In this document: piece after piece, positions 10,813 to 56,088 of the stretch
Numbering within the stretch: position 1 is the first letter of the stretch
How the letters are laid out: the number at the start of each line of letters is the position of its first letter
Notes under the pieces: model-generated
The model's database searches: none
What the model was told of the DNA's origin: nothing
What the model saw: only the letters and a program-made list of their open reading frames with translations
Position numbers and translations under genes: made by a program
Origin: a virus
Taxonomy: Duplodnaviria; Heunggongvirae; Uroviricota; Caudoviricetes
DNA: 64,000 bases
Direction: 5' to 3' (one strand)
Virus record (IMG/VR): IMGVR_UViG_2700989400_000004
Span: 1-64,000 of that record

Positions 10813-10864
10813 GGTTAAATCTCTGTATTAGTGGATGGGAGGCGGCTGTGTGCCGCCAGCCTGA

Positions 10865-11053
10865 TTAGTGAACTGCCTCGCGGCTGTCCTTCCATGCCAG
10901 AACTTCGGATAAAGACCAGCCAACGGAACGACCACCGAGTTTACGCCGTGATGGGAATTGTCCGGCTTTTTCCAGGCGGTAGCGGCATGAACGGCTCAGG
11001 CCTGTAAGTTGCTGACATTCTTTTTCACGTATAAAGCGATCTGTGCTTAACAC
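10865..11053 (-). CDS. alpA: AlpA family transcriptional regulator
   Basis: 62 aa; LTGLSRSCRYRLEKAGQFPSRRKLGGRSVGWSLSEVLAW is the AlpA-type HTH signature. Confidence 0.75.
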   Translation of the reverse strand: MLSTDRFIREKECQQLTGLSRSCRYRLEKAGQFPSRRKLGGRSVGWSLSEVLAWKDSREAVH

Positions 11054-11416
11054 AATTCCCCCTTTGTTGTTTCTTAAAGAGTCATTGGGTGGATTATTGG
11101 GTTGGGTCGGATTGTGTCAGGGTGTTTATGGAATGGCAAACACTGGTGGCGGTCGTTTTACAGAAGTGGGGTAATGAGAATAAAAACTTTTTTAATTCAT
11201 TGTGATGCAGTAGCGTAAAATTCTGTTTTTACGCCCTTTTTTACATGCTTTTAAGAGTGATTCGCCAATGTACAAAAAGCCAGTAAAACGACTGAAAATC
11301 AACTTTTTAGGGTGTCGGTCAGATGATAATCAAGTTTGTTCCAGATTGTTCGCCGTTGTTCGTCGTGGTGTCTCGTTGTTTCACGTTGTGTCCGTTCTGA
11401 AAAATCGCGAAAAAAA

Positions 11417-12667: not shown

Positions 12668-12668
12668 A

Positions 12669-12692
12669 ATTAACTACACCATTAACTACACC
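12669..12692. repeat. tandem 12-bp direct repeat ATTAACTACACC x2 next to int start
   Basis: Seen directly; candidate arm-type or regulatory site. Confidence 0.5.
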
Positions 12693-12910
12693 GATCATTG
12701 CACAAGGGGGTACAACGTGGAACAAATTGGAACAAGAAAAATTGCAATGAGTTTAAAAATCAAAAACATAATGAACAACGTGGCACATTATGAAACAGCA
12801 AAAAACACTAATTTATAAAATCACGATATTAATAATGTAACTTATATTTTCGTGAAATCTGTCACTGAAGAAAATTGGCAACTAAAGGTTAAAACCGTTA
12901 TAACACAGTC

Positions 12911-13005
12911 ACCGGCGCAGAGGAGACAATGCCGGATTTAAGACGCGGATGCACTGCTGTGTGTACTGTAGAGTCTGGCGGATGTCGACAGACTCTATTT
13001 TTTTA
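12911..13005 (+). ncRNA. mcaS: McaS (IsrA) small regulatory RNA
   Basis: Matches recalled McaS sequence ACCGGCGCAGAGGAGACAAUGCCGGAUUUAAGACGCGGAUG..., ends in a GAGTCTG...CAGACTC hairpin plus U-tract, convergent with abgR as in K-12. Confidence 0.7.
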
Positions 13006-13012
13006 TGCAGTT

Positions 13013-13921
13013 TTAACTTTGCAGATAGCCGCATTCTCGCCGGAATTGCGTGATTAATGACGCGGTCAGTGGTGTCTGGCGACTATCACGCCGCTGAATC
13101 AAATAATAGGCCGCTTTCGGTAAAATTTCGCTAACCGGCAACATCACCAGCCCCTGTCCGTGCAAGGGATCGCAGCCCATTTCTTCAGGCAGTATGCTGA
13201 GAAAATCGCTTTTTGCCACCAGACTGATACAGGCTGAGAACGTCTCGCAGACTACACCGACCTGTGGCGTTTGCGCCTGATCGTCAAGCAATTCACTCAA
13301 CTGTTTGTAGTAGCTGCCGTGTGGCGTCGGCATTGTCCAGCTGTAATCCAGTAACTGTTTGATCGAACGGGCACCAATGGCGGGGTGTCCCGGGCGGCAA
13401 AAGATCGCGAATTGCTTTTCCAGTAATTTCTCAAAAGTAAATTCGTGGTCGTACGGTCCCTGATAATAGGTATTGATGGTGAAATCCAATTCTCCCTGAC
13501 GCAATTCATTAATCATCGACACCAGTTGCCCTTCCATAATGCGTACTTTTACCTGCGGATGCTGCTGATGAAAACGAGATATGACAGCTGGCATCAGACT
13601 GCGGGAAATACTGGCCCCCATGCCGATATTAATCTGCCCTGCCAGTTGCCCTTGTCGTTGGCGAATATCCTCTTGGGCTGCGCGCAGTTCTTCAAGAATA
13701 AGACTGGCGTGCTGATAAAAACTTTCACCGGCATCAGTTAACGTCACGCCTTTACTACGGCGAAAAAAGAGTTGCGCCGCTAATCCTTCTTCCAGCTCCT
13801 GAATAGATTTACTCAGTGCCGGTTGCGACATATTCAACATTCGGCTCGCTCCGCGAATGCTGCCCTGACGAGCCACTTCAACAAAAGCACGAATTTGATG
13901 AATTTTTACCTGAAAAGCCAT
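13013..13921 (-). CDS. abgR: LysR-family regulator AbgR
   Basis: 302 aa LysR-type HTH plus substrate domain; divergent from abgAB-abgT. Confidence 0.9.
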   Translation of the reverse strand: MAFQVKIHQIRAFVEVARQGSIRGASRMLNMSQPALSKSIQELEEGLAAQLFFRRSKGVTLTDAGESFYQHASLILEELRAAQEDIRQRQGQLAGQINIGMGASISRSLMPAVISRFHQQHPQVKVRIMEGQLVSMINELRQGELDFTINTYYQGPYDHEFTFEKLLEKQFAIFCRPGHPAIGARSIKQLLDYSWTMPTPHGSYYKQLSELLDDQAQTPQVGVVCETFSACISLVAKSDFLSILPEEMGCDPLHGQGLVMLPVSEILPKAAYYLIQRRDSRQTPLTASLITQFRRECGYLQS

Positions 13922-14096
13922 GACGCCACCGATAACCGTTATTTATCAGACCAAAGAAACTGGCATCTACTTTAATGCAGATGATTGTGTCAGGGTAATT
14001 TATGAACGGTTAAAACTGTGAAAAATCAGTTAGTGATAAGTAAAAACTATCGCTACGTGAACCGGGTCACACTTTTTACTGATGACGGGAAAGGTT

Positions 14097-15407
14097 ATGG
14101 AGTCTTTGAATCAATTTGTTAATTCGCTTGCCCCAAAATTATCGCACTGGCGACGTGATTTTCATCACTATGCAGAGTCTGGCTGGGTGGAATTCCGCAC
14201 TGCCACCCTTGTTGCGGAAGAATTGCAGCAGCTCGGCTATTCACTGGCGCTGGGCCGCGAAGTAGTTAATGAAAGTAGCCGGATGGGACTACCTGATGAA
14301 CTCACTCTACAACGCGAATTCGAGCGCGCTCGTCAACAGGGTGCGCTAGCACAATGGATTGCGGTTTTTGAAGGTGGTTTCACTGGTATCGTCGCCACCC
14401 TGGATACCGGTCGCCCCGGTCCGGTGATGGCTTTCCGTGTCGATATGGACGCGCTGGATCTCAGTGAAGAGCAGGATGTCAGCCATCGCCCCTACCGCGA
14501 CGGTTTTGCGTCATGTAACGCCGGAATGATGCATGCCTGTGGTCATGATGGACATACCGCCATTGGGCTTGGGCTGGCGCATACCCTTAAACAATTCGAG
14601 TCCGGACTACATGGCGTCATCAAACTGATTTTTCAGCCTGCAGAGGAAGGTACGCGTGGCGCGCGGGCGATGGTCGATGCAGGTGTCGTAGATGATGTTG
14701 ATTATTTTACTGCCGTGCACATTGGCACTGGCGTACCTGCGGGCACCGTGGTGTGCGGCAGTGATAATTTTATGGCAACCACCAAATTTGACGCGCACTT
14801 CACCGGTACCGCCGCTCACGCAGGCGCAAAACCAGAAGACGGTCACAATGCCTTGTTGGCGGCAGCACAAGCCACTCTTGCACTGCATGCAATCGCCCCG
14901 CACAGCGAAGGAGCTTCCAGAGTAAACGTGGGCGTTATGCAGGCAGGAAGCGGTCGTAACGTTGTTCCTGCCTCGGCGTTGCTGAAAGTGGAAACACGCG
15001 GGGCCAGCGACGTCATTAATCAATATGTTTTTGACCGTGCACAACAAGCGATTCAGGGCGCAGCAACCATGTATGGTGTCGGCGTTGAAACTCGTCTGAT
15101 GGGTGCAGCTACCGCCAGTTCTCCTTCGCCGCAATGGGTCGCATGGTTGCAAAGTCAGGCGGCTCAGGTCGCGGGGGTCAATCAGGCCATTGAACGTGTT
15201 GAAGCGCCTGCGGGTTCCGAAGATGCCACATTAATGATGGCCCGCGTGCAGCAACATCAAGGGCAAGCCTCCTACGTGGTGTTTGGCACACAGCTGGCGG
15301 CAGGTCATCACAACGAAAAATTCGATTTTGACGAGCAGGTTCTCGCTATTGCCGTCGAAACGCTGGCGCGCACCGCGCTCAATTTTCCCTGGACGCGAGG
15401 TATCTGA
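14097..15407 (+). CDS. abgA: p-aminobenzoyl-glutamate hydrolase subunit A (M20 peptidase)
   Basis: 436 aa from MESLNQ start; M20 family metal-binding motifs. Confidence 0.9.
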   Translation: MESLNQFVNSLAPKLSHWRRDFHHYAESGWVEFRTATLVAEELQQLGYSLALGREVVNESSRMGLPDELTLQREFERARQQGALAQWIAVFEGGFTGIVATLDTGRPGPVMAFRVDMDALDLSEEQDVSHRPYRDGFASCNAGMMHACGHDGHTAIGLGLAHTLKQFESGLHGVIKLIFQPAEEGTRGARAMVDAGVVDDVDYFTAVHIGTGVPAGTVVCGSDNFMATTKFDAHFTGTAAHAGAKPEDGHNALLAAAQATLALHAIAPHSEGASRVNVGVMQAGSGRNVVPASALLKVETRGASDVINQYVFDRAQQAIQGAATMYGVGVETRLMGAATASSPSPQWVAWLQSQAAQVAGVNQAIERVEAPAGSEDATLMMARVQQHQGQASYVVFGTQLAAGHHNEKFDFDEQVLAIAVETLARTALNFPWTRGI

Positions 15408-16852
15408 TGCAGGAAATCTATCGTTTTATCGACGATGCGATTGAAGCCGATCGCCAACGTTATACCGATATTGCCGATCAAATCTGGGATCATCCAGAAA
15501 CACGTTTTGAAGAGTTCTGGTCAGCGGAGCATCTGGCTTCGGCGCTGGAATCTGCAGGCTTCACCGTTACCCGCAACGTAGGCAATATCCCAAATGCCTT
15601 TATTGCTTCGTTTGGTCAAGGCAAACCGGTTATCGCCCTGCTGGGAGAATATGACGCCCTGGCAGGTTTAAGTCAGCAAGCAGGTTGCGCGCAACCTACA
15701 TCCGTGACGCCCGGTGAAAATGGTCACGGTTGCGGACACAATTTGCTGGGAACCGCCGCCTTTGCCGCTGCAATAGCCGTCAAGAAATGGCTGGAACAAT
15801 ATGGGCAAGGCGGCACAGTGCGCTTTTATGGTTGTCCTGGCGAAGAAGGCGGCTCGGGTAAAACGTTCATGGTCCGCGAGGGGGTATTTGATGATGTGGA
15901 TGCGGCACTCACCTGGCACCCGGAAGCCTTTGCCGGTATGTTCAATACACGCACGCTGGCAAACATTCAGGCATCATGGCGCTTTAAAGGGATCGCAGCA
16001 CATGCCGCGAATTCCCCTCATTTGGGACGCAGCGCCCTTGATGCCGTAACGTTGATGACCACTGGCACCAACTTCCTCAACGAACATATTATTGAAAAAG
16101 CGCGCGTACACTATGCCATCACAGATAGCGGCGGGATCTCGCCCAACGTGGTCCAGGCGCAGGCAGAAGTGCTTTATCTTATCCGTGCCCCCGAAATGAC
16201 CGACGTGCAGCATATTTATGATCGGGTCGCCAAAATCGCCGAATGTGCGGCATTGATGACCGAAACCACGGTTGAATGCCGCTTCGACAAAGCCTGTTCC
16301 AGTTATCTCCCGAATCGCACCTTAGAAAATGCCATGTACCATGCCCTATCCCATTTTGGTACCCCGGAATGGAACTCCGAAGAACTGGCTTTTGCGAAAC
16401 AAATTCAGGCTACGCTCACCCCCAACGATCGGCAAAACAGTCTGAATAATATCGCCGCAACCGGTGGCGAAAACGGCAAGGTTTTTGCACTACGTCATCG
16501 TGAAACGGTACTGGCGAATGAGGTCGCTCCATATGCCGCCACCGATAACGTGCTTGCGGCATCGACTGATGTCGGCGACGTCAGTTGGAAACTGCCTGTT
16601 GCCCAGTGTTTCAGCCCCTGTTTTGCCGTCGGTACACCGCTACATACGTGGCAACTGGTTAGCCAGGGGCGAACATCTATTGCTCATAAAGGAATGCTGC
16701 TGGCGGCGAAAACTATGGCAGCAACCACAGTCAATCTCTTCATTGATTCAGGGCTATTGCAAGAATGCCAACAAGAGCATCAGCAAGTTACGGACACGCA
16801 ACCGTATCACTGCCCTATCCCGAAAAACGTGACACCGTCACCTTTAAAATAA
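15407..16852 (+). CDS. abgB: p-aminobenzoyl-glutamate hydrolase subunit B (M20 peptidase)
   Basis: 481 aa; start overlaps abgA stop. Confidence 0.9.
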   Translation: MQEIYRFIDDAIEADRQRYTDIADQIWDHPETRFEEFWSAEHLASALESAGFTVTRNVGNIPNAFIASFGQGKPVIALLGEYDALAGLSQQAGCAQPTSVTPGENGHGCGHNLLGTAAFAAAIAVKKWLEQYGQGGTVRFYGCPGEEGGSGKTFMVREGVFDDVDAALTWHPEAFAGMFNTRTLANIQASWRFKGIAAHAANSPHLGRSALDAVTLMTTGTNFLNEHIIEKARVHYAITDSGGISPNVVQAQAEVLYLIRAPEMTDVQHIYDRVAKIAECAALMTETTVECRFDKACSSYLPNRTLENAMYHALSHFGTPEWNSEELAFAKQIQATLTPNDRQNSLNNIAATGGENGKVFALRHRETVLANEVAPYAATDNVLAASTDVGDVSWKLPVAQCFSPCFAVGTPLHTWQLVSQGRTSIAHKGMLLAAKTMAATTVNLFIDSGLLQECQQEHQQVTDTQPYHCPIPKNVTPSPLK

Positions 16853-16888
16853 CAACAACAACGCAAACACAACAACCGAGGAATGCCC

Positions 16889-18334
16889 ATGAGTATGTCA
16901 TCCATACCGTCGTCCTCCCAATCCGGGAAGCTCTATGGCTGGGTCGAAAGAATTGGTAACAAGGTTCCCCATCCTTTTTTGCTCTTTATCTATTTGATAA
17001 TCGTACTCATGGTGACGACGGCAATTTTGTCAGCCTTTGGCGTCAGTGCGAAAAACCCGACCGATGGTACGCCGGTGGTGGTGAAAAACCTGCTCAGTGT
17101 GGAAGGATTACACTGGTTTTTACCCAATGTGATTAAAAACTTTAGCGGTTTTGCTCCACTTGGAGCGATCCTGGCGCTGGTTTTAGGTGCCGGCCTAGCG
17201 GAGCGCGTCGGCTTACTGCCAGCGCTAATGGTTAAAATGGCATCGCATGTTAATGCCCGCTACGCCAGTTATATGGTGCTGTTTATTGCTTTTTTCAGCC
17301 ACATTTCTTCCGATGCGGCGTTAGTGATCATGCCACCGATGGGTGCGCTGATTTTTCTGGCGGTGGGCAGGCATCCAGTTGCAGGTTTACTGGCTGCCAT
17401 TGCAGGCGTAGGTTGCGGCTTTACGGCTAATTTACTGATTGTCACAACCGACGTGTTGCTGTCGGGGATCAGCACGGAAGCGGCGGCTGCGTTCAATCCG
17501 CAAATGCACGTCAGTGTAATTGATAACTGGTATTTTATGGCCAGCTCCGTAGTCGTACTGACGATTGTTGGCGGCCTGATAACCGACAAAATCATCGAGC
17601 CACGATTAGGTCAATGGCAGGGAAACAGCGATGAGAAACTGCAGACATTGACCGAAAGTCAGCGTTTTGGTTTACGCATAGCAGGTGTCGTATCGCTACT
17701 TTTTATTGCTGCGATCGCGCTGATGGTGATCCCGGAAAACGGGATATTGCGCGATCCGATTAATCACACCGTGATGCCATCACCCTTTATTAAAGGTATC
17801 GTGCCACTGATCATTCTTTTTTTCTTTGTTGTCTCGCTGGCTTATGGCATCGCTACCCGCACAATTCGACGTCAGGCGGATTTACCGCATTTAATGATTG
17901 AACCGATGAAAGAGATGGCGGGATTTATCGTGATGGTTTTTCCCCTCGCCCAATTTGTCGCCATGTTTAACTGGAGCAACATGGGGAAATTCATCGCCGT
18001 GGGGCTGACCGATATACTTGAAAGTTCAGGGCTTAGCGGCATCCCGGCGTTTGTCGGTCTGGCGTTGCTTTCCTCTTTCTTATGCATGTTTATTGCCAGC
18101 GGTTCCGCAATCTGGTCGATTCTGGCCCCCATTTTCGTACCAATGTTTATGCTACTTGGCTTTCACCCGGCATTTGCGCAAATCCTCTTTCGTATTGCCG
18201 ACTCATCCGTATTGCCTTTAGCGCCGGTATCTCCTTTTGTTCCACTGTTTCTTGGATTCCTGCAACGCTACAAACCAGACGCAAAACTGGGTACTTACTA
18301 TTCGTTAGTCTTGCCCTATCCGCTTATCTTTTGA
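16889..18334 (+). CDS. abgT: p-aminobenzoyl-glutamate transporter AbgT, apparently C-terminally shortened
   Basis: Polytopic AbgT-family protein; 481 aa from MSMSS start versus about 508 aa recalled for K-12; prophage DNA begins right after the stop. Confidence 0.85.
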   Translation: MSMSSIPSSSQSGKLYGWVERIGNKVPHPFLLFIYLIIVLMVTTAILSAFGVSAKNPTDGTPVVVKNLLSVEGLHWFLPNVIKNFSGFAPLGAILALVLGAGLAERVGLLPALMVKMASHVNARYASYMVLFIAFFSHISSDAALVIMPPMGALIFLAVGRHPVAGLLAAIAGVGCGFTANLLIVTTDVLLSGISTEAAAAFNPQMHVSVIDNWYFMASSVVVLTIVGGLITDKIIEPRLGQWQGNSDEKLQTLTESQRFGLRIAGVVSLLFIAAIALMVIPENGILRDPINHTVMPSPFIKGIVPLIILFFFVVSLAYGIATRTIRRQADLPHLMIEPMKEMAGFIVMVFPLAQFVAMFNWSNMGKFIAVGLTDILESSGLSGIPAFVGLALLSSFLCMFIASGSAIWSILAPIFVPMFMLLGFHPAFAQILFRIADSSVLPLAPVSPFVPLFLGFLQRYKPDAKLGTYYSLVLPYPLIF

Positions 18335-23700: not shown

Positions 23701-24960
23701 ATCGTCTGCTACATACTCTTTTGATTGCTCCCAGCCGTTCTTCGGGTCAGTCCAAGATACGATCACGGCGTTATAACATTCCGCACGGGCGATACTTGAA
23801 CGAGTAAACGCGCCATCAACGACATTTGCATTTGTAATAGTGGCGATCGGATCTTGTGGCGCATCGATCATCACCGTAAGGCGTTGTCCGTCCCATAGCG
23901 CCATACCTCTGAACATCCCGGCGATATTGTCCAGTAAGTCGCGGGCGCTCATCTGCTCTGTAATGTACGCATTAAGCGTAACGCGCGGCTCAAGGCCGCC
24001 GTAACCATCATTGACTAACTGGTCGCAGTATTGGGAAAGCGTATATAATGCGCCGTCATCAACATCAATATAGCCAGCATGACGGGCAAGGCCAAAACGC
24101 TCGTTTTTAACCAGATAACGGAAGATCCAAGCGGGGTTATTAGTGTACGCCTGCTTGAAGCCGCCAAGCCATAATCCTGAGTAAGTGCGCGTTTCCGGGT
24201 TGTAGTTATCAGGGATATCAACAATCAGCCCGCGGAGGTGATAAGTGCGGGTAGGCGTGTCAGCGTACTGATCATGGTCGATCACTGCGCCAGCTATAGC
24301 CGTGTGAGGGTAAGATAGGTTATCGTCGATAATTTCACTGTAACTATTCCATCGTGTATTGTTGTTCAATAAATCGCCAGTGCTATCGGGTGTAATACGA
24401 CGAACCCGAATATCGAACGGGCTTTCACTAGGTGCGCAAATAATATGAGACTCAAGATATTCACCGCTAATTTTACCGGTAATAGAAACGGCTTTAACAG
24501 GCGTCCATATCGTTGATGATGATGGTTTTACGTCAATCATCATCATAACGGTTGAATTGTATTGATTCCCTTCATCATCGCTTTCTACAAGAACATCCAC
24601 CCCAACATTCAACCTGACTCGCGTCACGTTGGGATCGGATACAGTGCGAACTAACGGGGTGTCGTGTGTTACCTCGGTGTTAACCATAACGGTCGATTCA
24701 ATAGCATTAAAACCATTGATCGGCGATTGGTTAAGTGTACCAGGACGCCAGGCGACACTAACGCCGGGGATACTGACATGACCCGCAGTATCCGTAATAG
24801 GTGTATCATTAAGCATCACGCAGTTCAACGGCGCGGCAGCATTAACCGGACCGTAGATCGGGCCTTCACTCAATATATCTAATACGCGATAAAACTGTTT
24901 ATGATACAAATTGTCATTAAGTAAATCTGGTGTGCTACCGCCACCACCACCACCGCCCAT
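20779..24960 (-). CDS. host specificity (central tail fiber) protein, lambda J-like
   Basis: 1393 aa; size, position after I/K/L and N-terminal conservation; divergent coiled-coil-rich C-terminal half. Confidence 0.8.
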   Translation of the reverse strand: MGGGGGGGSTPDLLNDNLYHKQFYRVLDILSEGPIYGPVNAAAPLNCVMLNDTPITDTAGHVSIPGVSVAWRPGTLNQSPINGFNAIESTVMVNTEVTHDTPLVRTVSDPNVTRVRLNVGVDVLVESDDEGNQYNSTVMMMIDVKPSSSTIWTPVKAVSITGKISGEYLESHIICAPSESPFDIRVRRITPDSTGDLLNNNTRWNSYSEIIDDNLSYPHTAIAGAVIDHDQYADTPTRTYHLRGLIVDIPDNYNPETRTYSGLWLGGFKQAYTNNPAWIFRYLVKNERFGLARHAGYIDVDDGALYTLSQYCDQLVNDGYGGLEPRVTLNAYITEQMSARDLLDNIAGMFRGMALWDGQRLTVMIDAPQDPIATITNANVVDGAFTRSSIARAECYNAVIVSWTDPKNGWEQSKEYVADDELIARDGYNETTLEAFGCTSRGQAYRAGKWLIETAKREPSKFTFKMARDAIHFTPGDIIEILDNNRAGARLGGRIVANNGKVITVDKVDSEYITAGDTISLLDSDGKFKKHQITGVNGNEITLAAAPAWIRNGTVFAVSTEAAKPVLCRITSVAETENNSVYTIEAAQHDPNKQAVVDEGAIFEISSDTLNHFRVPNIENLKVVNVGSETVQCRATWETQTTTHPLTFEIRVYNADGRVVASYETTNYRYEFYGLDAGNYTLGIRGRNDTGMKGAESIVDLVIGAPAAPVGVNWVPGVFQATVYPISSTTLTTDTSYEFYYAGENQITDFSQVTTSAQFTGRGYQWTFGGMATGHTYYVYVRTKNAFGVSDFIEASGKPSENFEEITDAVLNEVMEGEQFQNMIKDSIGEVTGGLMGDVEELKQTTVDIDQAVTDLKESTADLEERVKNNEDGIGEHESQINEISVELTEQENELMQTRASLQNAAIALMNNSLANTSTRTTLTAQYKNQKAETKAEIERIDSVIATEKEATAQALTTLESKVNDEISANVTELQQTIATLESSTSQSIEKLESQVNEDIQASLTEINQTITDLESSTAESINNLEAKVDGDISSAISSVDQALATHEQANATQFAQISASLEANEASITEWSEAFTSYQESTATQIESITASIEGQSVSIEENKTAITSLESDMSATWSVKIAADSNGMKYFSGISLGLTGSGTSTQSQCIFLVDRFVLMTAANGTYTTPFYVTNGAMYVREAFIKDASITTAKIAQQIQSSNYVSGSAGWMINKNGNAEFNNVTVRGTVYANSGVFNGTINATDGKFKGVVEATSFVGDVANMGVGPDRVLGYNGSYKATITYNDSTTSALTKSVMLMATITLTSGEYRSTYNVTFSCGGQSKTIQYYVPYGGCTLTVQCAFSGLTTSRITGEIYCPQTSASEGYSYCMALYSPTMLVSRGTGSFSASTTA

Positions 24961-24973
24961 AGTAACCCCCTTA

Positions 24974-25456
24974 TTAACTTACAACATCTAAGGCGTCTTT
25001 ATTATTGGTTGTGTCAATACCCAGGGAACCAACATTTGACCCTATTTTCATTTCACCCAATAAGATTGGAACGGGTCGCCCCTGGCCTACTCTGTTTTCT
25101 ACACTGGTGTAAGTGTTATTAGTGATGCGCCCATCCTGCGCACTTTCTGCTGATGTTTGCGGCTTCATGTTGCGATACATATAAATAGAATAAGCGACGC
25201 TCGCCACCGTAAGGCCAACCAAAAGCCAACCAACAAGACCAATCCCAGCTACCCCGCCCTCGATTAACGGCGCGATAATAATTGTCGTTCCGTCTGGATA
25301 TTTGTTATTAACAGCCACTACGCAATTTTTTTCATCACAATCCCTTCCTGCGATCCGCAATCGTAATGGCGTACCTAAAAATGCTCGCTTAAAATCCTGA
25401 TTTTGTGCAACCAGCAAGCGAAGTCCCTGCGCTGGTGTTTCGACATTTAGACACAT
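24974..25456 (-). CDS. tail assembly protein, lambda I-like
   Basis: Position and size; hydrophobic central segment; start from internal ATG. Confidence 0.65.
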   Translation of the reverse strand: MCLNVETPAQGLRLLVAQNQDFKRAFLGTPLRLRIAGRDCDEKNCVVAVNNKYPDGTTIIIAPLIEGGVAGIGLVGWLLVGLTVASVAYSIYMYRNMKPQTSAESAQDGRITNNTYTSVENRVGQGRPVPILLGEMKIGSNVGSLGIDTTNNKDALDVVS

Positions 25457-27539: not shown

Positions 27540-27788
27540 ATGGCGCGGCGTAATCACGGGGATTATGTGTACACGTTGAAACAAGCCGCCCGCCTTATTG
27601 GCTATCATGAGCATGAATTTATTGATTTGCTGATTGAGCGCGGGATTCTGTACCAGGTTTGTTTAACGTTGTACCCAAAAGCTAAATACCTACAGGAAAA
27701 ATTATTCATCATCATGACGGATGAAAACCAAGTTAATCATTCATTCGTCACTGACAGGGGCGTTAATTATCTGCGTGATAACTTATAG
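27540..27788 (+). CDS. hypothetical protein (antisense cassette)
   Basis: 82 aa; tightly spaced after previous ORF. Confidence 0.4.
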   Translation: MARRNHGDYVYTLKQAARLIGYHEHEFIDLLIERGILYQVCLTLYPKAKYLQEKLFIIMTDENQVNHSFVTDRGVNYLRDNL

Positions 27789-29263: not shown

Positions 29264-29518
29264 ATGAAACTGGTAGCGATTGATAAAAATTTGAAGGTAC
29301 AGAAAAACGCGCAGGACCGGATCATCAAAAAGGGTAAGGCTTTATTAAATGCTTTCCTGAAAAAAGAAGCTCACCCCAAAAAGTTACGCGATGGTTACGG
29401 TTATAAATTTGATATCAACCCCGATTGGCGGTTATTCAGCGATGATTTGAAGGTGTGGTTAATTATCGAGCATCATTATTATAATGTTAAATGTGGGGTT
29501 AAGGGGGCGCATAAATGA
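29264..29518 (+). CDS. hypothetical protein (antisense cassette 2)
   Basis: 84 aa; translationally coupled to following short ORFs. Confidence 0.4.
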   Translation: MKLVAIDKNLKVQKNAQDRIIKKGKALLNAFLKKEAHPKKLRDGYGYKFDINPDWRLFSDDLKVWLIIEHHYYNVKCGVKGAHK

Positions 29519-33185: not shown

Positions 33186-33923
33186 ATGAAAAACGTAATT
33201 AAAGCGGCTCTTATTGGTGTTATGGCTTTCGGTCTTGTAGGTTGCGCACCTTCATATTCAGAGCAAGTAAAAGCAATAGAAAAAGGCGTGCTAATGCTGG
33301 ATAAAACGGGGGTTAACAAGGATGCATGGAAAGTAAAAGCAGATGATTATGTCGCCGATTGCAACAACCTTAAGAGATACAAAGGAAAAACAGGTGAAAC
33401 CGCCGTACTATTATGCGAACTAATCATCAAAGAAGATGAACTAACAGAAAGCGGACTATATACAAGCGCGGCTAACCTCGGCGTCGATATAGCGGGCCTT
33501 TATGATGTACTAAGTAATAAAAATTCAGCCGCTGCATTATCAGCCGAACGTGTAGCAAAACTTGTGATAAGTGCTAATAAGTCAGCATTTCGCAATAGAC
33601 AACAAGTTATAGAAAATGAATGCCGCGGCTTTATGGATAAAAACTTTAAAGGCTGGAGTGAGTTAAACCCTATAGATGACGAAATTTATAATAATTGCCG
33701 GAATGCCGCAATGTTCTCTGATGAAAGCAAAAACAGAATGGGGAGCATAATTTCTACAACGCTCGCATATAGAGTAAGACACCTCGATCAAAAAACAAAA
33801 ACAAATGTATTAACTAACGCATTCATAGCAGTTCAGGCAGGCTGGAGTATAGGGAATGGATATCACGCCGTAAAACCGACTCCGGCAGAACTACAAGCGA
33901 TTGCGCTACGCGATGCAAAGTGA
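33186..33923 (+). CDS. lipoprotein (moron, antisense to tail operon)
   Basis: Signal peptide plus lipobox LVGC; 245 aa; own terminator. Confidence 0.6.
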   Translation: MKNVIKAALIGVMAFGLVGCAPSYSEQVKAIEKGVLMLDKTGVNKDAWKVKADDYVADCNNLKRYKGKTGETAVLLCELIIKEDELTESGLYTSAANLGVDIAGLYDVLSNKNSAAALSAERVAKLVISANKSAFRNRQQVIENECRGFMDKNFKGWSELNPIDDEIYNNCRNAAMFSDESKNRMGSIISTTLAYRVRHLDQKTKTNVLTNAFIAVQAGWSIGNGYHAVKPTPAELQAIALRDAK

Positions 33924-34665: not shown

Positions 34666-35178
34666 TTATTCGACTGGTGTCTCTTGTTCAGTTCCGGCGT
34701 CTTCCTCTGCCGGGAGATCATCGACGGTTACTTGTCCGGCGCTGGAACATTCGATCGACCAGGTGCAAGCGTCATCATGCGGATCGTCTTCCTCAAAGTT
34801 GGTGCAAAGGAATGGACCCTCGGTCACGTCCACCGGGGAAACCATTTTCAACCACACATAAGGCTGTCCACCAGTGGCTTCGCCTGGATTAATGGTATGA
34901 CGTTTCAATGCCTTCTGGTTGTAGATCTCTTCGGTACGGGATACGCCATCACCGGAGAAAGAAACAGATTTGTAAGTTACCAATGATTCCTTAGTGTAAT
35001 CAGCGGATTTGTCAGCGGTGGCATCTGCGACTTCCCATTCGACGGAAAGCGTTTTACCGCGCATCATGCCAAGCTCTAAATAATCTTCATCCGCTGGCTT
35101 CGCGTTAGGGCAAGCAATAGCGAAAAACACCGCGACGTCGCGCCCTGTGAATGCGCCTTTCTGGCAAGTTGTAGACAT
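34666..35178 (-). CDS. putative major tail (tube) protein
   Basis: 170 aa; position in structural operon. Confidence 0.45.
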   Translation of the reverse strand: MSTTCQKGAFTGRDVAVFFAIACPNAKPADEDYLELGMMRGKTLSVEWEVADATADKSADYTKESLVTYKSVSFSGDGVSRTEEIYNQKALKRHTINPGEATGGQPYVWLKMVSPVDVTEGPFLCTNFEEDDPHDDACTWSIECSSAGQVTVDDLPAEEDAGTEQETPVE

Positions 35179-35191
35179 ATTCTTTTACCTC

Positions 35192-35578
35192 TTATCTAGA
35201 TATTATGGTTTGGAAAGCTACTGTGAATATATAGCGCCCTTCCTTCGTCATGATCGCCGGAATAGCACCAGTTGGTTTCATGTGAATAATTTTATCAGTT
35301 TTAAATTCAGTTAACATACTTTGCCGGATAGCATCGGCAAGGTCTTCCACTTCACTGATATTTTCATCATTGCGCGCGGAAATAACCAAGATGCGGAAAT
35401 AATCGCGGGTGATGGCTTCTTCCCCCGCCGCGCCGCCGTTTTGCTGGATAACGATATAACGGGCGTTATTTGTATCCGGGCGCTCATTCCAGAAACGGGC
35501 CTGCAAAATATAACCTTCATCATAGCCGTGGGACTGAATCCAACCCCTTATATTGTCGTAGACTTCGCTGCGTTTCAT
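35192..35578 (-). CDS. putative tail terminator/head-tail joining protein
   Basis: 128 aa; position. Confidence 0.4.
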   Translation of the reverse strand: MKRSEVYDNIRGWIQSHGYDEGYILQARFWNERPDTNNARYIVIQQNGGAAGEEAITRDYFRILVISARNDENISEVEDLADAIRQSMLTEFKTDKIIHMKPTGAIPAIMTKEGRYIFTVAFQTIISR

Positions 35579-36009
35579 ATTTGATAACCTCGCTCAATCT
35601 CTCGCGTAATTTCTCCTAAGTTTTCGTCAATGCCTTTGCGCAAGAATTCCGGCTCCGCGTTTGGATCCCAATATTCACCATTCCCCGTGCCGCCGCCGAA
35701 CTCCACCCCGTCACTAGTGCGCCCGAAGTTTTCGCGCGGCTGGCCTTTTAATTTACCCGGCATATCGTGCACCCATTCCGCATAGCGGGCCGTATATCCT
35801 AAGCGCAATTGCATTCCGGCGGGCGTGTTATCAATTTCCTGATATTGGCTATTGATTAAAAAACTGGTATCCACTGGCGTTAATAATGCCGCATATCCGC
35901 CGCCAATCATGCCTACACGCCATAAAACTTCGGCGGTTTTCTTATCGGCTATCTCTTTTAATTCTTGCTTTATACGCTCGCGTACACGCTTAACACCCTT
36001 AATAGGCAT
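35575..36009 (-). CDS. putative tail completion protein (HK97 gp10-like)
   Basis: 144 aa; position; 4-nt overlaps. Confidence 0.4.
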   Translation of the reverse strand: MPIKGVKRVRERIKQELKEIADKKTAEVLWRVGMIGGGYAALLTPVDTSFLINSQYQEIDNTPAGMQLRLGYTARYAEWVHDMPGKLKGQPRENFGRTSDGVEFGGGTGNGEYWDPNAEPEFLRKGIDENLGEITREIERGYQI

Positions 36010-36020
36010 AGAAAACCCCT

Positions 36021-36407
36021 TTAATATTTACTTTGCACGCTGTTACCTGTAATGATTTTATAATCCGGCGTGTCGTTAAACATGCTCATATCCCATTCAA
36101 CCACGCCTGAGATCTCATTCGCGCCAGCCTCAAGCGGATCAGAAAAAGCCGTGGTGTCACCTGGTGCAATCATCCACCCTTTCCGGGGCCGCTCCACTGG
36201 TTGCAGGTTGTAAAGCAGTTCGGTAAATATGACGTAACTGACATCGGTTTCACTCCCGCGCTCGTCTTCGTCTTTCCCTTCCGTCGCTGTCCAGGCGCAA
36301 TCAATCAGGTAAGGTTGCCCGTATACCTTCGAATTATTCCAATCGTCATAGGTTACGGGGTAAATGGTGGCTAACGCCTTATAACTAAATCGCGCGATCT
36401 TACTCAT
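36021..36407 (-). CDS. putative head closure protein
   Basis: 128 aa; position. Confidence 0.4.
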   Translation of the reverse strand: MSKIARFSYKALATIYPVTYDDWNNSKVYGQPYLIDCAWTATEGKDEDERGSETDVSYVIFTELLYNLQPVERPRKGWMIAPGDTTAFSDPLEAGANEISGVVEWDMSMFNDTPDYKIITGNSVQSKY

Positions 36408-36591
36408 AACCGTAACTCCATTTAATGACCTTCGGATGTGTTTTCGCCACGCGCGGGCAAAGAATTACCCATTGACCAGCATCATTGAGATAGGCGGCAA
36501 CCTGTCGCCCGGTGTCAGTCTTCACCCACACGCGGGTAAATAGCTTCGGTAATACAGGGTCCGGTAACGTTAGGTCGTTCCACATAGTCAC
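36400..36591 (-). CDS. hypothetical small structural-module protein
   Basis: 63 aa, overlaps neighbours. Confidence 0.3.
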   Translation of the reverse strand: MTMWNDLTLPDPVLPKLFTRVWVKTDTGRQVAAYLNDAGQWVILCPRVAKTHPKVIKWSYGYE

Positions 36592-36974
36592 ATCCTCCCG
36601 CTCTTACCAATCCAGATCCCGGCGTGCGCGGTGGCTTCAGGATCTGCCGGAATCAGTTCGGCTGTGCAATGGTACTTGTCAACGGAATAAAGCAACGTCC
36701 GCGCCGCTTTCAGTTTCTTGTTGAAATCGACATAGCGGTAGGACTGGCTTGCACCGTTCGGCCCTGTCTGTGAGGAAATATATTTATTCGCCTGCGTGAG
36801 TCCTAACAGGCCGATCAGATAAAGTTGTATTAGCGTTGCAGTGGAGGCTGGATAGTTGGCATCAAGACATTCATTAACGCTATTTGCCTGCTCCACCAGC
36901 AAAGATAAGATAATGTCCGGCAGGTCAATACCCTAGCTTTCAAGATATCCCCGCGCCTGTTCTGTCGTAACCAT
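36588..36974 (-). pseudogene. head-tail connector gene interrupted by in-frame amber (TAG) at codon 14
   Basis: ATG at 36974 with GGAG Shine-Dalgarno; MVTTEQARGYLES-TAG-GIDLPDIILSLLVEQ...; frame otherwise open to 36588. Confidence 0.45.
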
Positions 36975-36992: not shown

Positions 36993-37020
36993 AAAAAAAA
37001 TCCCCGGCATCGCGCCGGGG
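36993..37020 (-). terminator. rho-independent terminator after major capsid gene
   Basis: CCCCGGCGCGATGCCGGGG hairpin followed by T8 on minus strand. Confidence 0.6.
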
Positions 37021-37040
37021 AGTTACAGGAAACATTCAGA

Positions 37041-38090
37041 TTAATTGTGACCGTAAACGACACCGGAACGGCCCAGCATGTCGGAAGTGATTTGTAAACC
37101 TTCAGCCGACATAATGCGGAAGTTGTAGTTATCGGTCGGCATAAAGCGCGGCAGCGGTACTACACCAGTAGTCATACCGATCAGCGGGGTGACTACATCC
37201 TTGCGGCGCTGATAACCCAGGATCTCATTACCTTTCAGTGCGAAGGTCTGAGTAATTTCACCGACCGGGGCGAAAGGTTTGATAACATCCAGGACGCTAC
37301 CAACGATTGCACCGTTAACGATGTGCGGACGTGCCAGGTTAGCCATAATTTCAGGCGATACCCACAGACGATCATACTTAGCAACGAAGTTATTACGTGC
37401 CAGTACGCCGAACTCGCCAATGGTGAAGAAGTCGATCAGGTCTTCAAAGCCTGCGGTAGTCAGATCAATAGTCAGAGTAAGCTGTTGGGTGTTTTTGTGG
37501 TTTTTCATGCCCATTGCTTTATGACCATCGACAACGATACGCTCGTTACCGTTCAGGTAGAAGTCAACGCGTGCTTTGTTGAATTTTTTCAGTTTCAGGC
37601 GCTGGCTGTCCAGTGCAAGGTCAATCCCTACGGTATTCAGACCAGCGGCATGACGCCAGTTAACACCGTAACCCGCTGCGAACATCGGGATCGGGTCGCC
37701 ATCGCTGCCGTATTCGGTGTGGTCGAAACCGTGTGGTACTTGACCGTCCATAGACATTACGACTTCATCGTTAATGTCGCCTGCTACGCTGTACATTTTC
37801 AGCGTTTTACCGATAGGTAGCACGGTTTGTACAGCCATCAAGTCATTCACGATTTCAATACCGATCTCTTCGGTATTCAGTTCGATGATCTGGTTATCAA
37901 TTTCTTTCCAGAATTCCTTCTCGAAGCCGCCAACGGCGTTACAAGCCAGCATTTCAGCGGTCATGTTTGCTTTGTTAGCTGCAATCATGGCGTTATGCTG
38001 ATCGTTGAAGATGTTACGTTGCGCCCACAGTTCAGCCCAATGTGCCTGAAGGCGGCTATTAGCGGCTAAATTTTCTTTAGTAAAGTACAT
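37041..38090 (-). CDS. major capsid protein
   Basis: 349 aa; position after decoration/scaffold genes; strong terminator downstream. Confidence 0.7.
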   Translation of the reverse strand: MYFTKENLAANSRLQAHWAELWAQRNIFNDQHNAMIAANKANMTAEMLACNAVGGFEKEFWKEIDNQIIELNTEEIGIEIVNDLMAVQTVLPIGKTLKMYSVAGDINDEVVMSMDGQVPHGFDHTEYGSDGDPIPMFAAGYGVNWRHAAGLNTVGIDLALDSQRLKLKKFNKARVDFYLNGNERIVVDGHKAMGMKNHKNTQQLTLTIDLTTAGFEDLIDFFTIGEFGVLARNNFVAKYDRLWVSPEIMANLARPHIVNGAIVGSVLDVIKPFAPVGEITQTFALKGNEILGYQRRKDVVTPLIGMTTGVVPLPRFMPTDNYNFRIMSAEGLQITSDMLGRSGVVYGHN

Positions 38091-38496: not shown

Positions 38497-39831
38497 TTAG
38501 AAATAGGTGTTAAAGTCTGGTACTTCGCCTTTTTTGCCTTCTTCAGCGGCATTGGTTGCCAGCGGCGCGGCTTTGCCCAGGTTTTTAAACATTTCTTCTA
38601 ACGCTTCACCACTCAAAGCATTAGCAACAATTTCGCCGTGAACTTTCATTACTGCGGCGCGTTTTTCTGCTTCTTTTTTATTTGCGTTTGCTGCGATCTC
38701 TTCTTTGATCGCTTTCTGGTTGGTCTGCAATTCTTCTACGCTTGCCTGTACTGGTTTTAATGCTTCCGCTACTGCATTAGCGATATTAGCGGCTAAGCCT
38801 TCGTTAATTTCTTTTACCAGATCGGCGCGTTCTTCAGGTGTTAAAGGCATATCGATTTCCTCTTTTTTATTAGCCTGGATTTTTTCTTTCAGGATAAACA
38901 AATCGGATAGGTGTTCGGCGAATTGAGTAAACCAGGATTTCGAATCCTCGTTAGTTTGCAGTTCGCCATCATTGAGAATTATTTTACCAGTCTGTTTTTT
39001 GTATGTGCAAACTTGAGCAATTTCACGTTGTTTTGCTTCATGATATACACCATCAACCAGGATGCCACCATCATAAGCACAATAAACATAGCTTACTTGT
39101 TCGTCATTGAAGTCATGAATATAAACATAGTCGGCGTCTTTATGTTTTTCTTGGAGCGCTGCGTAAAGCATTTTCTCTGTGGCACGATAGCTACCCTCCA
39201 TCATCGCTTTTTGTGTCAGCGGTCTGGCGGTTGCGGTATTAACCATCAGGCCAACCCCTTGTTCCGGGGATGCAGCGGGCGGCTCATGCAGTAAAATAGC
39301 GTCATGGTCGATCGACATAATTTTAACAACGCTGTCAGCACCCTGGGCTTTCATCTCTTCAGTAGCTGGCATACGTTGACGATATACGGCGACGGATGAC
39401 CAGATCGGCTCTTTGCTTTCGCCTTTCTCCAGTGCTTCCAGTCGGCTTAATAATTCGCGACCTTGTTCTGAATGGCTGGCGGTTTCCACGTCTACCCATT
39501 TTTCCACATAAACACGATTGCCGCGTAATTCAACGTTTCTGTTCCACGCTCCACAAAAACCCGTATTCAATCCTTCCGGGCTAAATGCGGATACAAATTT
39601 ACCGTCCACGGTAGGATGACCCAGCGGGGCAAGCGTTCCCTCCAGCGACTGGTAATTAGCGATAATTTCAGCTTCCGGGTAATATTCACGATTCATAACG
39701 ATGTTAAAGGGTAACGTGTAGGAAGGGACGACAATATGCTCTCTCCCGTTATACGTTTCCCGGCGGATTGTATTAGCGGTTAATTTGGTATTAACCTGAA
39801 TCAATTCTTTAGTCACGGTTTCTACTCCCAA
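38497..39831 (-). CDS. putative scaffolding protein
   Basis: 444 aa; coiled-coil Lys/Glu/Ala-rich C-terminal third. Confidence 0.45.
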   Translation of the reverse strand: MGVETVTKELIQVNTKLTANTIRRETYNGREHIVVPSYTLPFNIVMNREYYPEAEIIANYQSLEGTLAPLGHPTVDGKFVSAFSPEGLNTGFCGAWNRNVELRGNRVYVEKWVDVETASHSEQGRELLSRLEALEKGESKEPIWSSVAVYRQRMPATEEMKAQGADSVVKIMSIDHDAILLHEPPAASPEQGVGLMVNTATARPLTQKAMMEGSYRATEKMLYAALQEKHKDADYVYIHDFNDEQVSYVYCAYDGGILVDGVYHEAKQREIAQVCTYKKQTGKIILNDGELQTNEDSKSWFTQFAEHLSDLFILKEKIQANKKEEIDMPLTPEERADLVKEINEGLAANIANAVAEALKPVQASVEELQTNQKAIKEEIAANANKKEAEKRAAVMKVHGEIVANALSGEALEEMFKNLGKAAPLATNAAEEGKKGEVPDFNTYF

Positions 39832-40772
39832 TCTTCGCCATATTTAGCGTGCGCAACCTTATAGTTTTCTTGCGCCCGTTGTTTGATTCGGTTGTTTAAT
39901 ATATTACCGTCTTCATCCACCAATACGGTAATTGTGGTACATTTACAGTTAATGGAATTGGGGGAAATACTCCACCATTCGCGCTGTTGTTCGATGGTAT
40001 AAGTTTTCCCGTGTCGCTGTGCGTGAGTTAGGCGCGTCGTCGGTGATAATGCCGAAATATGCATTTGCATAGTGCGCAGATTAAATTCTTCTATTGCCGC
40101 TTCAGCTTCATCCATACGCGCTGTGCGTAACGCTGTGCATATTTCCGTTCGGGCAATACGTTTGCACCTGTATAGCGGCAATTGCGTTTCCTGCTGCAAT
40201 GTGCGCGCTATTTCCAGTGGATTTAAACCACGGGCCATCCCTTCGGTTAATCGCCGGGCCATATCCTTCTTGATCTGTGCTGTTAGCCCGCGCATTTCCT
40301 CAAATACACGGGTACGAACAAGGATCAGGCGCGTGCGGTAGGCTGTGCTGCTTAATACGTCCGCCACTTCAGGATAAGCCCTGGCATATGTGACCGACTG
40401 GTTAGCCAGGTTAGCATGTTCTTGTGACGTCCCGCGCTGATAAGCGACCTTCACATAGTTTTGCCAAAACCAAAATGAGTCAGGATCAGATAGTTCGAAT
40501 ATTTCATCAATCATCCCACCAGCATCATCAAGCAATGTTTGCAGTTCGTCCATGTATATTTGGAAGGTGTATTTCTTATTCAGTGACTTTTGCGCGGGTA
40601 TCTTGTCCAGGATGTCGATATAAGGTTGCGCCACTTTCTTTAAGCACGCCTTAAACCGCTTATCAGCCCCCGACCGTAACTTACCTGTCATGGTCGGGTC
40701 TTCGGTATTACTTGGCATTATTGCGGACGGCGGAATCTTTTTGATTATTTTCTTTATCTTCATCTTCATCAT
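39822..40772 (-). CDS. head morphogenesis protein (SPP1 gp7 / Mu F-like)
   Basis: Position after portal; start uncertain among three ATGs. Confidence 0.5.
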   Translation of the reverse strand: MMKMKIKKIIKKIPPSAIMPSNTEDPTMTGKLRSGADKRFKACLKKVAQPYIDILDKIPAQKSLNKKYTFQIYMDELQTLLDDAGGMIDEIFELSDPDSFWFWQNYVKVAYQRGTSQEHANLANQSVTYARAYPEVADVLSSTAYRTRLILVRTRVFEEMRGLTAQIKKDMARRLTEGMARGLNPLEIARTLQQETQLPLYRCKRIARTEICTALRTARMDEAEAAIEEFNLRTMQMHISALSPTTRLTHAQRHGKTYTIEQQREWWSISPNSINCKCTTITVLVDEDGNILNNRIKQRAQENYKVAHAKYGEDWE

Positions 40773-42111
40773 CCCCGTCTTTCTCTTCTTCCAGTTCTAC
40801 TTCCTGCGTTGGCCCTTCATATCCGGCAGCTTCGCGGATCTCTTCACCGTCGAATATTTGCTCCCCGGTGGCTAAGCACGCCTGATTGATTTGCGCCATC
40901 TTATGGGCCGCTTCCAGCATTTCAGCCTTAGTCATGGCGTTTAGGTCGTCCCATATCACTGATATGTCGGCAGGCATTGCAATCAAGCGAAGGTCAGCCA
41001 GCTTGCGGAATAGATCCTCAAGCTCCCCGCCGATTTCCTCGCGTCGGGTCATACAGCGATTGTTGAAATAGCGTAGATCTTCGGTTGATGCGCGTTCACC
41101 CTGCTGATTGCCAACCAGGATACGCGTCGGGATGTCGATACCAGCGGCTGCGGTTTGCAGGTTGACGTCATAGGTTGCAGTCGGATCAGGAACGGTTGTT
41201 ACCAGTGGATTGACGGTAGCGCCTTGTAACGCCATCATCACATCATTACCCTTATTGATTTCAGCGGTGGCCTCATTGAACTTCTCGCGTAGCTCTGTGA
41301 CGTCGCAATCATAGGTTGCAGCCAGGGACCGGAAATCAATCTCTTTATCGAACGAGATAGCCAGTTGACGCGCTGCGTTTTTCAGGAATGACTCACCGCT
41401 ACCACCTTCCACTTTCTCCAGTGAAACAAAGGCGTTGTAGGACGGCTCAAGAAAGGCTATGGCGTCTTCAGAATAGTCCCCGAAGATAAAAACCCGGTCT
41501 GCGTGAATCTTCCTGTTTACGGTCTTCCCGTTAATGCGTTCTTTGTACTCCCACCAGGTAGGCAGGCCATAGTTCGGCTCATCTGGATCTGCTTCGAAGT
41601 CTTTCGGTGTTAATGCACCAGCCCACACAGGCGTAAACTTCTCGATCGCTGTTCCCTTAGTTACGGGCTTATCCCACGGTTGGTTATCTTTGACGTGGAT
41701 TAATAGTCCGGCATAACGACCGATGAGGCGGCGACGGTCGCATTCTGAGATAGTGCGCCAAAAACGATTATCAAATTGCTTTTTAATCGCCTTTTCCCAG
41801 GGTGTTTCTTTTTCGGCGCGTTCATCTTCCGTCCCCTCGATGATAACCGGGGATGTGCGCCAGCAAGTGGTAATTATCTTTTCGATGGCCCCGTGAGCGA
41901 TGCCACCGCGACGGTACAGCTTATATAAATCGGTGTAGGTGATTTCTTCTTTGAATCCGTATTCACTCCATGCTGCGTTACGTTTCGCATCAATACCCAT
42001 TGAGAATGGATGCGCGGCAGCATAGCGGGTCATGGCTGCATGACGTTGTGATAATGCAGCATTGACCGCCAATTCAAGGTTTGAAGGCATAATGTTTACT
42101 CCTGAATACAT
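40708..42111 (-). CDS. portal protein
   Basis: 467 aa; acidic C-terminal tail; position after large terminase. Confidence 0.75.
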   Translation of the reverse strand: MYSGVNIMPSNLELAVNAALSQRHAAMTRYAAAHPFSMGIDAKRNAAWSEYGFKEEITYTDLYKLYRRGGIAHGAIEKIITTCWRTSPVIIEGTEDERAEKETPWEKAIKKQFDNRFWRTISECDRRRLIGRYAGLLIHVKDNQPWDKPVTKGTAIEKFTPVWAGALTPKDFEADPDEPNYGLPTWWEYKERINGKTVNRKIHADRVFIFGDYSEDAIAFLEPSYNAFVSLEKVEGGSGESFLKNAARQLAISFDKEIDFRSLAATYDCDVTELREKFNEATAEINKGNDVMMALQGATVNPLVTTVPDPTATYDVNLQTAAAGIDIPTRILVGNQQGERASTEDLRYFNNRCMTRREEIGGELEDLFRKLADLRLIAMPADISVIWDDLNAMTKAEMLEAAHKMAQINQACLATGEQIFDGEEIREAAGYEGPTQEVELEEEKDGDDEDEDKENNQKDSAVRNNAK

Positions 42112-55055: not shown

Positions 55056-55557
55056 TTTTATGATACCCCGCCGCGCGTAATAGTGATTCGTTGTCAAACT
55101 TCACATCAAGCCGATTAATAATCTCACCACCGTTAAACATCACAGTTGGGATTGTCCCTGGTGCAATAGATGGCTCTGGTCCAGCAAGATCAGCAAAAGT
55201 TTTCTTCAATCCACCGATAGGGAGATCAAAAACGCCCTGTTTTTTCTTTTGTTCTTCCTCCCGCTCCGTTAATATTTGCTCCGCTTTTAGCGCGTTGTAG
55301 CTAATCAAATCAATTAGCGTGTCTGTCGGATCGCTATTATTGCTCAAAATAGCTTCTAATCGCGCCTCCTTGAGACAAATTAGTAGATCCCATACATCAA
55401 GCGGGGTTAAATTTGCCCCCTTCTTAGCGTTGTAAATAGCGGCTATTTTTGGCGCTGATTTTTCCTCTTTTTTGTCGTATCCGTTTTGCTTACCTCTTTG
55501 CTCTATGGTTTCCGCCGCAAGTCTCAATAAATCTGTTGCCTTAGTCATTATTTGCAC
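55036..55557 (-). CDS. hypothetical protein
   Basis: 173 aa between Dam and membrane protein. Confidence 0.4.
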   Translation of the reverse strand: MQIMTKATDLLRLAAETIEQRGKQNGYDKKEEKSAPKIAAIYNAKKGANLTPLDVWDLLICLKEARLEAILSNNSDPTDTLIDLISYNALKAEQILTEREEEQKKKQGVFDLPIGGLKKTFADLAGPEPSIAPGTIPTVMFNGGEIINRLDVKFDNESLLRAAGYHKNGKGDN

Positions 55558-56029
55558 CTCTTGCGTATAGCTCTTTACGTGTTATCTGCGTGAAAATACA
55601 TTCATGTTTGCACCGTGGATGCCAGATCAAGAACAAGCTCCCTTTATTGTTTCCGCTTGCTGGCTTACCCGTCGCAGCATTAATAAACGCCAGCCGCCCG
55701 CGCGTGATTAAGCGACATTCGCTTGCCGTCTCCAGGCCGTTCATAAACCAGTTAACAGAGATATCAGCGGGCAACAACATTACACAGCCAATATGATTTC
55801 GGTGATGTTCCATCGCTGCCTTATCTACGAATGGCCCCGGATTCGAATATGGCGGATTAAGCCAGACATATTCACCAGGCATTGCTACCGCTCCCCACGG
55901 ATAATGGAGTGTGTCCATCTCTTCGGTTATATATCGCGGAACTAATGCGTTTGCCTTGTTTGCCGCCACATCCGCGACGAATTCGAATTCACGGTCCATT
56001 CCTCTAAAACGGGTTTTGGCGTTTGCCAT
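55541..56029 (-). CDS. phage-type DNA N-6-adenine methyltransferase (Dam family)
   Basis: VWLNPPYS catalytic motif and GCVMLLPADISVNWF...GRLAF. Confidence 0.7.
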   Translation of the reverse strand: MANAKTRFRGMDREFEFVADVAANKANALVPRYITEEMDTLHYPWGAVAMPGEYVWLNPPYSNPGPFVDKAAMEHHRNHIGCVMLLPADISVNWFMNGLETASECRLITRGRLAFINAATGKPASGNNKGSLFLIWHPRCKHECIFTQITRKELYARGANND

Positions 56030-56088
56030 AAGTCCTTTATTTCTTTTGGCGTATGGCTTCCGCCGTAATCATTTTTCATTACGCCCCC

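Follow-up and report, generated by a model that had tools for sequence, protein, structure and literature searches.

We consider it likely that a recent point mutation, private to one E. coli strain, changed the CAG codon for Gln14 of a DUF7370 gene to an amber codon (TAG) and so eliminated a conserved virion protein that is encoded by an mEp021-group prophage integrated in abgT. The stretch of DNA analysed (64,000 nucleotides, hereafter the window) shows no differences over 7,050 nt from contig LIVK01000004.1 of the E. coli draft genome GCA_001420135.1, and coordinate arithmetic places it at positions 47797-111796 of that contig on the same strand, window position 36935 being contig position 84731.

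The interrupted gene and codon 14 in its relatives

On the minus strand, a Shine-Dalgarno sequence (GGAG, 36986-36983) is followed by an 8-nt spacer and an ATG at 36974-36972. From this ATG the codons read ATG GTT ACG ACA GAA CAG GCG CGG GGA TAT CTT GAA AGC TAG, and beyond the TAG (36935-36933) the frame continues with GGT ATT GAC CTG and stays open for 114 further codons up to a TGA at 36590-36588. The whole gene (36588..36974, minus strand) comprises 128 codons, and translation across the amber gives MVTTEQARGYLES before the stop and GIDLPDIILSLL... after it. If no suppression takes place, MVTTEQARGYLES, encoded by the residual 13-codon open reading frame (36936..36974, minus strand), would be expected to be the sole product. 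An earlier, sequence-only reading had reported the in-frame TAG at codon 14, the GGAG and the start codon at 36974, and its coordinates and translation proved exact on rereading; its description of the product as a protein of connector length is one of size only, and family membership was tested separately. The Shine-Dalgarno sequence is conserved in all relatives, and the record of phage mEp021 annotates a ribosome-binding site, TGGAG, at this position.

With the stop read as glutamine, the 128-aa product matches the Pfam family DUF7370 (PF24085) along the full length of the profile, at positions 1-124 of 124 (E 2e-45; 154.5 bits against a cut-off of 27), as well as phrog_786 (1.7e-44), and it is 97% identical to the ortholog in the RM9245 prophage, with a single stop within the alignment. 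Since the homology continues across the TAG without a change of frame, this is no chance open reading frame. An intact protein that differs only in carrying Gln14 (P0121; the other 127 positions are identical) is encoded on nine contigs, and it agrees with the window at all 13 residues ahead of the stop and at all 114 beyond it, as is characteristic of a nonsense pseudogene.

Comparison with orthologous phage genes, which the sequence-only reading had proposed as a check, returned CAG at codon 14 in every relative examined. The codon is CAG (Gln) in all 10 orthologs aligned as DNA and protein, namely six E. coli prophages, mEp515, mEp010, mEp044 and MagusPhagus, among which some 30 nt around codon 14 are almost invariant, and it is also CAG in mEp021. 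The TAG (36933..36935, minus strand) derives from CAG by a C-to-T transition at nucleotide 40 of the gene. On the nine P0121 contigs the gene differs from that of the window at 2-7 nt, and all of them have C at nucleotide 40; the changes private to the window gene are two, the nonsense change C40T and the synonymous change G126A. A 29-mer carrying CAG at codon 14 is found on 32 IMG/VR contigs, whereas the same 29-mer with TAG gave no match in pattern scans of the IMG/VR viral, JGI metagenome and GTDB genome collections. The window's own assembly, on contig LIVK01000004.1, is the only place where this allele is on record, and exact look-ups of the truncated DUF7370 products likewise returned that contig only. 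Exact-match queries with the tape-measure and scaffold-like proteins returned nothing or only the window's contig, and look-ups of the capsid and Dam proteins led to different mosaic prophages. By these comparisons, the TAG is a derived, single-step and private allele. The lesion is also young, since the nearest relative has 3 differences in about 1,800 bases around the gene and the one other private change within it is synonymous. As a separate observation, codon 9 (36948-36950, minus strand) is GGA (Gly) in the window and its nine closest relatives, GAA (Glu) in the mEp phages and other E. coli prophages, and mostly Glu or Gln in the wider family.

Alternatives to a strain-private nonsense mutation

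The sequence-only reading had offered three explanations for the amber codon, namely an inactivating nonsense mutation, a sequencing error, or a site that requires suppression or reinitiation. The CAG of the relatives and the private C-to-T change favour the first, while the lack of tRNA genes in the window and of Shine-Dalgarno sequences ahead of the possible restart codons speaks against the last.

It is possible, though unlikely, that the strain in fact has CAG and that the T was miscalled in the draft consensus. The TAG allele occurs in one assembly only, the databases have no second, independent assembly of this prophage variant, and the gene is otherwise perfectly conserved, all of which would be compatible with a miscall. 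However, the difference is a substitution that lies in no homopolymer (AAAGC[T]AGGG), and consensus errors of the substitution type occur far less often than true divergence. From its nearest relatives the prophage diverges by 3-8%, and true differences should thus vastly outnumber plausible consensus errors; a second private substitution, G126A, is present in the same gene. Moreover, those other RM9245 prophage proteins that match the window show no stop within their alignments. The assembly also looks sound in this region, in that the one suspicious homopolymer difference nearby, in the Dam methylase gene, is confirmed by an independent assembly. A sequencing error is therefore less likely than a true nonsense mutation.

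The Dam methylase gene (55541-56079, minus strand) has, near its 5' end, a run of four T at 56006-56009 where RM9245 has five, which splits a 179-aa frame and leaves a 162-aa open reading frame from an ATG at 56029. The T4 allele is also present in an unrelated Logan assembly, SRR33511316, in a different background, and the 162-aa form is common, which together rule out an assembly error or a private lesion as the source of the frameshift. The T4 allele is thus a real polymorphism.

A second possibility, also improbable in our judgement, is that the stop is real but leaky, either through an amber suppressor in the host, such as a supE-type glnV allele, or through basal read-through by tRNA-Gln, and that the prophage is conditionally or weakly viable. 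Natural read-through of UAG by tRNA-Gln, at a low level, would restore Gln14, and with it the exact wild-type protein, and the phenotype could then be leaky. Across the family, position 14 varies (L, Q, Y, M and others), such that most amino acid insertions should be tolerated there, and a suppressor elsewhere in the genome, if present, would probably restore function to the DUF7370 protein as judged from this variability. In addition, about 12 copies of the adaptor per virion suffice in siphovirus necks, and the remaining late genes are intact. Against this, ARAGORN finds no tRNA gene in the 64-kb window, which rules out a suppressor tRNA in cis. TAG is also the normal stop in three of the 41 prophage genes (ending at 39822, 46225 and 60327), the genes for the MuF-like head protein and Rz among them, and efficient suppression would extend those proteins. 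Finally, no relative keeps a stop at codon 14, and nothing thus indicates selection for read-through. To the narrower claim, that the prophage is still viable through a Gln-inserting suppressor or basal tRNA-Gln read-through, we give only a small chance. If it were true, this would be a naturally occurring conditional-lethal (sus-like) prophage whose particle output hinges on the translational fidelity of the host.

The chances appear slimmer still that a shorter functional protein is made by reinitiation at the ATT of codon 16, the TTG of codon 25 or the GTG of codon 27. The frame is open from codon 15 to its end, the ATT lies 3 nt past the stop, where a terminating ribosome could in principle rescan, and the databases do carry short products of this locus: a 113-aa 'DUF7370 family protein' in RefSeq (WP_252322280.1) that starts at the ATT (window 36588-36929, minus strand), and a 102-aa protein in GenBank that starts at the GTG. 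However, E. coli initiates very poorly at ATT, no purine-rich Shine-Dalgarno sequence precedes the ATT, the TTG or the GTG, and the DUF7370 frame has no in-frame ATG 3' of the amber. The N-terminus that such products lack is also a constant part of the family. The 13 N-terminal residues, modelled as a confident helix (pLDDT 94-97), are present in all 84 diverse homologs aligned, and nearly all of the 119 relatives retrieved at E up to 0.001 by a full-library HMMER search are 120-135 aa long and align from residues 1-4. An AlphaFold2 model of the protein (pLDDT 89.4 overall) has a first helix at residues 4-13 and a second at residues 20-31, both at pLDDT 94-98; judging from this model, a restart at codon 25 or 27 would remove the first helix and half of the second, which are structured and conserved parts of the protein. 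The 113-aa and 102-aa entries are annotation work-arounds for the nonsense mutation rather than a genuine short isoform, and WP_252322280.1 can be flagged as an annotation artefact.

Programmed recoding, be it regulated read-through or an alternative code with a reassigned TAG, has nothing in its favour beyond the in-frame TAG itself and appears effectively refuted: the stop is conserved in no relative, as it should be in programmed read-through, the window holds no suppressor tRNA, the host is an ordinary E. coli, and the three other genes of the same prophage that end in TAG rule out a reassignment of the code.

The prophage and the probable role of the DUF7370 protein

In the left part of the window lie abgR, abgA, abgB and abgT, which are 99.8% identical to E. 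coli chromosomes. They are followed by a prophage of about 45 kb whose late genes span about 47 kb to 18.5 kb, running on the minus strand. The Pfam profile of abgT (16883-18334, plus strand) is matched only up to position 476 of 502, the 3' end being missing, and the gene adjoins the tail-fibre end of the prophage (18484 onward). The prophage is thus inserted in the 3' end of abgT. This arrangement is shared with RM9245, whose prophage is the closest complete relative (about 94% identity), and the 3' end of abgT is one of the integration sites of the mEpimmI phages, along with the 5' end of ydaM and mppA (PMC11893012). The prophage is a member of the mEp021 ('mEpimmI') group, which consists of Nus-dependent, non-lambdoid temperate siphoviruses: a 901-nt query is 84-88% identical to mEp515, mEp010, mEp013, mEp044, mEp554 and MagusPhagus, and the 25-kb late region aligns with mEp phages at 81-83% identity over 50-63% of its length, with the gene order shared. 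A second integrative element lies beside abgR, at about 5458-12667 on the minus strand, with a tyrosine integrase (11417-12667) and a 710-aa DUF927 protein (5458-7590); the stretch 5400-18300, which includes this element, is covered to at least 80% in only 7 of 5,426 complete E. coli genomes.

Apart from the DUF7370 gene, the late genes of the prophage are intact. When the 79 annotated proteins of the RM9245 prophage were compared with the window by tblastn, an internal stop showed up in the alignment of the DUF7370 protein alone. Terminase, portal, MuF-like, scaffold-like, decoration and capsid proteins, the neck proteins and the tail terminator are essentially full-length and free of stops, and so are the tube, chaperone and tape-measure proteins, the M/L/K/I/J-like tail-tip proteins, holin, lysozyme and Rz. 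With the other matched proteins free of stops, the amber lesion is isolated and young and no part of an advanced decay.

Several features of these and neighbouring genes are worth recording for annotation. The portal protein (window 40708-42111; 23827-25200 in the RM9245 prophage, L023) belongs to Pfam Phage_portal_3 and phrog_146, and in many E. coli genomes PGAP calls it 'anti-CBASS protein Acb1 family protein', a name that is likely an artefact. The MuF-like minor head protein of the window (39822-40772) has 316 aa and is without an intein; in two related prophages (L015 and L020; 5300-7204) it has 634 aa and contains one (PF14890). Between the tail chaperone and tape-measure genes, an open reading frame of 245 aa lies on the opposite strand (33186-33923, plus strand) and has no Pfam match; several relatives, including RM9245, L014 and L016-L018, have a VasI/TagO-like gene (PF11319) in this slot, and the 245-aa frame looks like a swapped moron. 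Two further opposite-strand accessory genes in the tail module (29264-29518 and 27540-27785, both plus strand) are shared with relatives; one encodes a ParE-like toxin-domain protein and the other a KilAC antirepressor-domain fragment.

The DUF7370 gene lies between the head genes and the neck genes. Upstream is the intact major capsid gene (DUF6260; 37041..38090, minus strand), which is identified by Pfam (3.3e-109), by its PGAP name in RM9245 and by a full-length tblastn match. Between the two genes is an intrinsic terminator (36993..37021, minus strand) with a 9-bp stem, including seven GC pairs, that is followed by T8. A terminator scan and an alignment show the stem region to be nearly invariant in 11 sequences, terminators are annotated in the mEp phages, and in HK97 a terminator likewise follows the capsid gene; presumably, it sets the ratio of capsid to neck proteins under late antitermination. 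Directly 3' of the DUF7370 gene is a 61-codon gene (phrog_1261; 36400..36585, minus strand) whose ATG, at 36585, lies 2 nt past the DUF7370 stop codon and which has its own GGAGG. It is followed on the minus strand by genes that are all intact, for a 128-aa protein (phrog_797; within 34666..36407), a Neck1/tail-completion-like protein (phrog_5; 35575-36009), the tail terminator (PF23842; 35192-35578) and the tail tube (34666-35178); these genes were assigned from Pfam and PHROGs hits, and their tblastn matches are full-length and free of stops.

This position suggests what the DUF7370 protein may do. The order in the window (capsid, terminator, DUF7370, 61-aa protein, 128-aa protein, Neck1/tail-completion-like protein, tail terminator, tail tube) follows the same plan as that of HK97 (gp5, terminator, gp6, gp7, gp10, gp11, gp12), with DUF7370 at the place of the adaptor gene, and by this analogy the protein probably works as a head-to-tail adaptor. 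Both Pfam and PHROGs file the family (DUF7370, phrog_786) as of unknown function. Its member in mEp021, mEp021_57, is 91% identical as a protein and labelled 'virion structural protein' in GenBank. The virions of mEp021 have been analysed by mass spectrometry (PMC11893012), but neither the DUF7370 protein nor mEp021_57 is named in the text or supplements of that study, and we found no test of essentiality for the protein in members of the group.

Other hints at a role in the neck are weak. The best match of the family profile among PDB sequences is the 'Head completion protein gp1' of 7kln (E 0.6), two of 84 family members match DUF4054 in a Pfam scan, two of 84 fall into phrog_302 ('virion structural protein') in a PHROGs scan, and one record in nr is named 'head to tail adaptor'. 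At E<=1, neither the window protein nor any of its 84 relatives matches PF05135 (Phage_connect_1), the gp6 family, and hhalign gives a probability of 0.4% for the family alignment against that of HK97 gp6. Foldseek finds no significant match of the model in the PDB, and BFVD returned unnamed proteins only. As far as sequence comparison can tell, the DUF7370 protein is thus no demonstrable member of the gp6 family. 'Head-tail connector', the label that the sequence-only reading had given the gene, is accordingly best taken as a hypothesis, plausible from a gene position as in HK97 but unproven.

Expected consequences and known systems

In siphoviruses, the head-to-tail adaptor binds to the portal as a 12-mer once the DNA is packaged and makes it possible for the neck and tail to attach; when it is lost in lambda, SPP1 or HK97, packaged heads fail to retain their DNA or to bind tails. 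In the prophage of the window, ribosomes would start normally at the ATG at 36974 and RF1 would terminate translation after 13 residues; with no usable restart site, essentially no DUF7370 protein should be made. Some 345 nt of message would then be untranslated before the next gene, and the neck genes further along might be subject to some loss of translational coupling or to Rho-dependent polarity, an effect that the late-operon antiterminator (PF03589; 51521-52249) may blunt. Since the DUF7370 protein is encoded at the adaptor gene position, few or no infectious particles are to be expected upon induction: by analogy with adaptor mutants, lysis would release DNA-filled heads and free tails, possibly with some leakiness. 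The otherwise intact prophage is thus probably unable to make infectious particles, with the adaptor role of the protein, its essentiality and the assembly-defective phenotype all being inferred.

As an event, this is ordinary and already well understood, a nonsense point mutation in a late gene of a prophage, with a single occurrence in one draft genome. Its relevance hardly extends beyond annotation, for which it flags the prophage as probably non-infectious despite late genes that otherwise look complete, a point of relevance for predicting inducible prophages in the strain of GCA_001420135.1. For the mEp021 group, the DUF7370 family gains a tentative role as head-to-tail adaptor, and the strain offers a natural null allele with which this assignment could be tested.

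Among known adaptors, those of the HK97 gp6/SPP1 gp15 type (PF05135) differ from the DUF7370 family in that no PF05135 hit, no hhalign match and no significant Foldseek match in the PDB connects the two. A close counterpart in a known phage is mEp021_57, which has the same upstream terminator, ribosome-binding site and start; mEp021 differs in having CAG at codon 14, and it is viable and forms plaques. In its nature, the lesion resembles the classical amber (sus/am) mutants in adaptor or head-completion genes, such as lambda W and FII, P22 gene 4 and SPP1 gene 15, which share with it an early CAG-to-TAG change in a small neck gene. The phenotype to be expected is likewise one of filled heads that are unable to join tails, rescuable by a Gln-inserting suppressor. 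Unlike these mutants, the amber of the window was encountered in a draft-sequenced E. coli isolate rather than in a laboratory phage stock, and it shows no sign of a suppressor host or of a history of mutagenesis. A further parallel is provided by the decaying ('grounded' or cryptic) prophages of E. coli, in which a single point mutation can likewise inactivate a late gene of an integrated temperate phage and the lesion is neutral for as long as the phage stays a prophage. However, classical cryptic prophages have accumulated many deletions and disruptions, whereas the prophage of the window has one visible lesion and would thus stand at the earliest possible stage of such decay.
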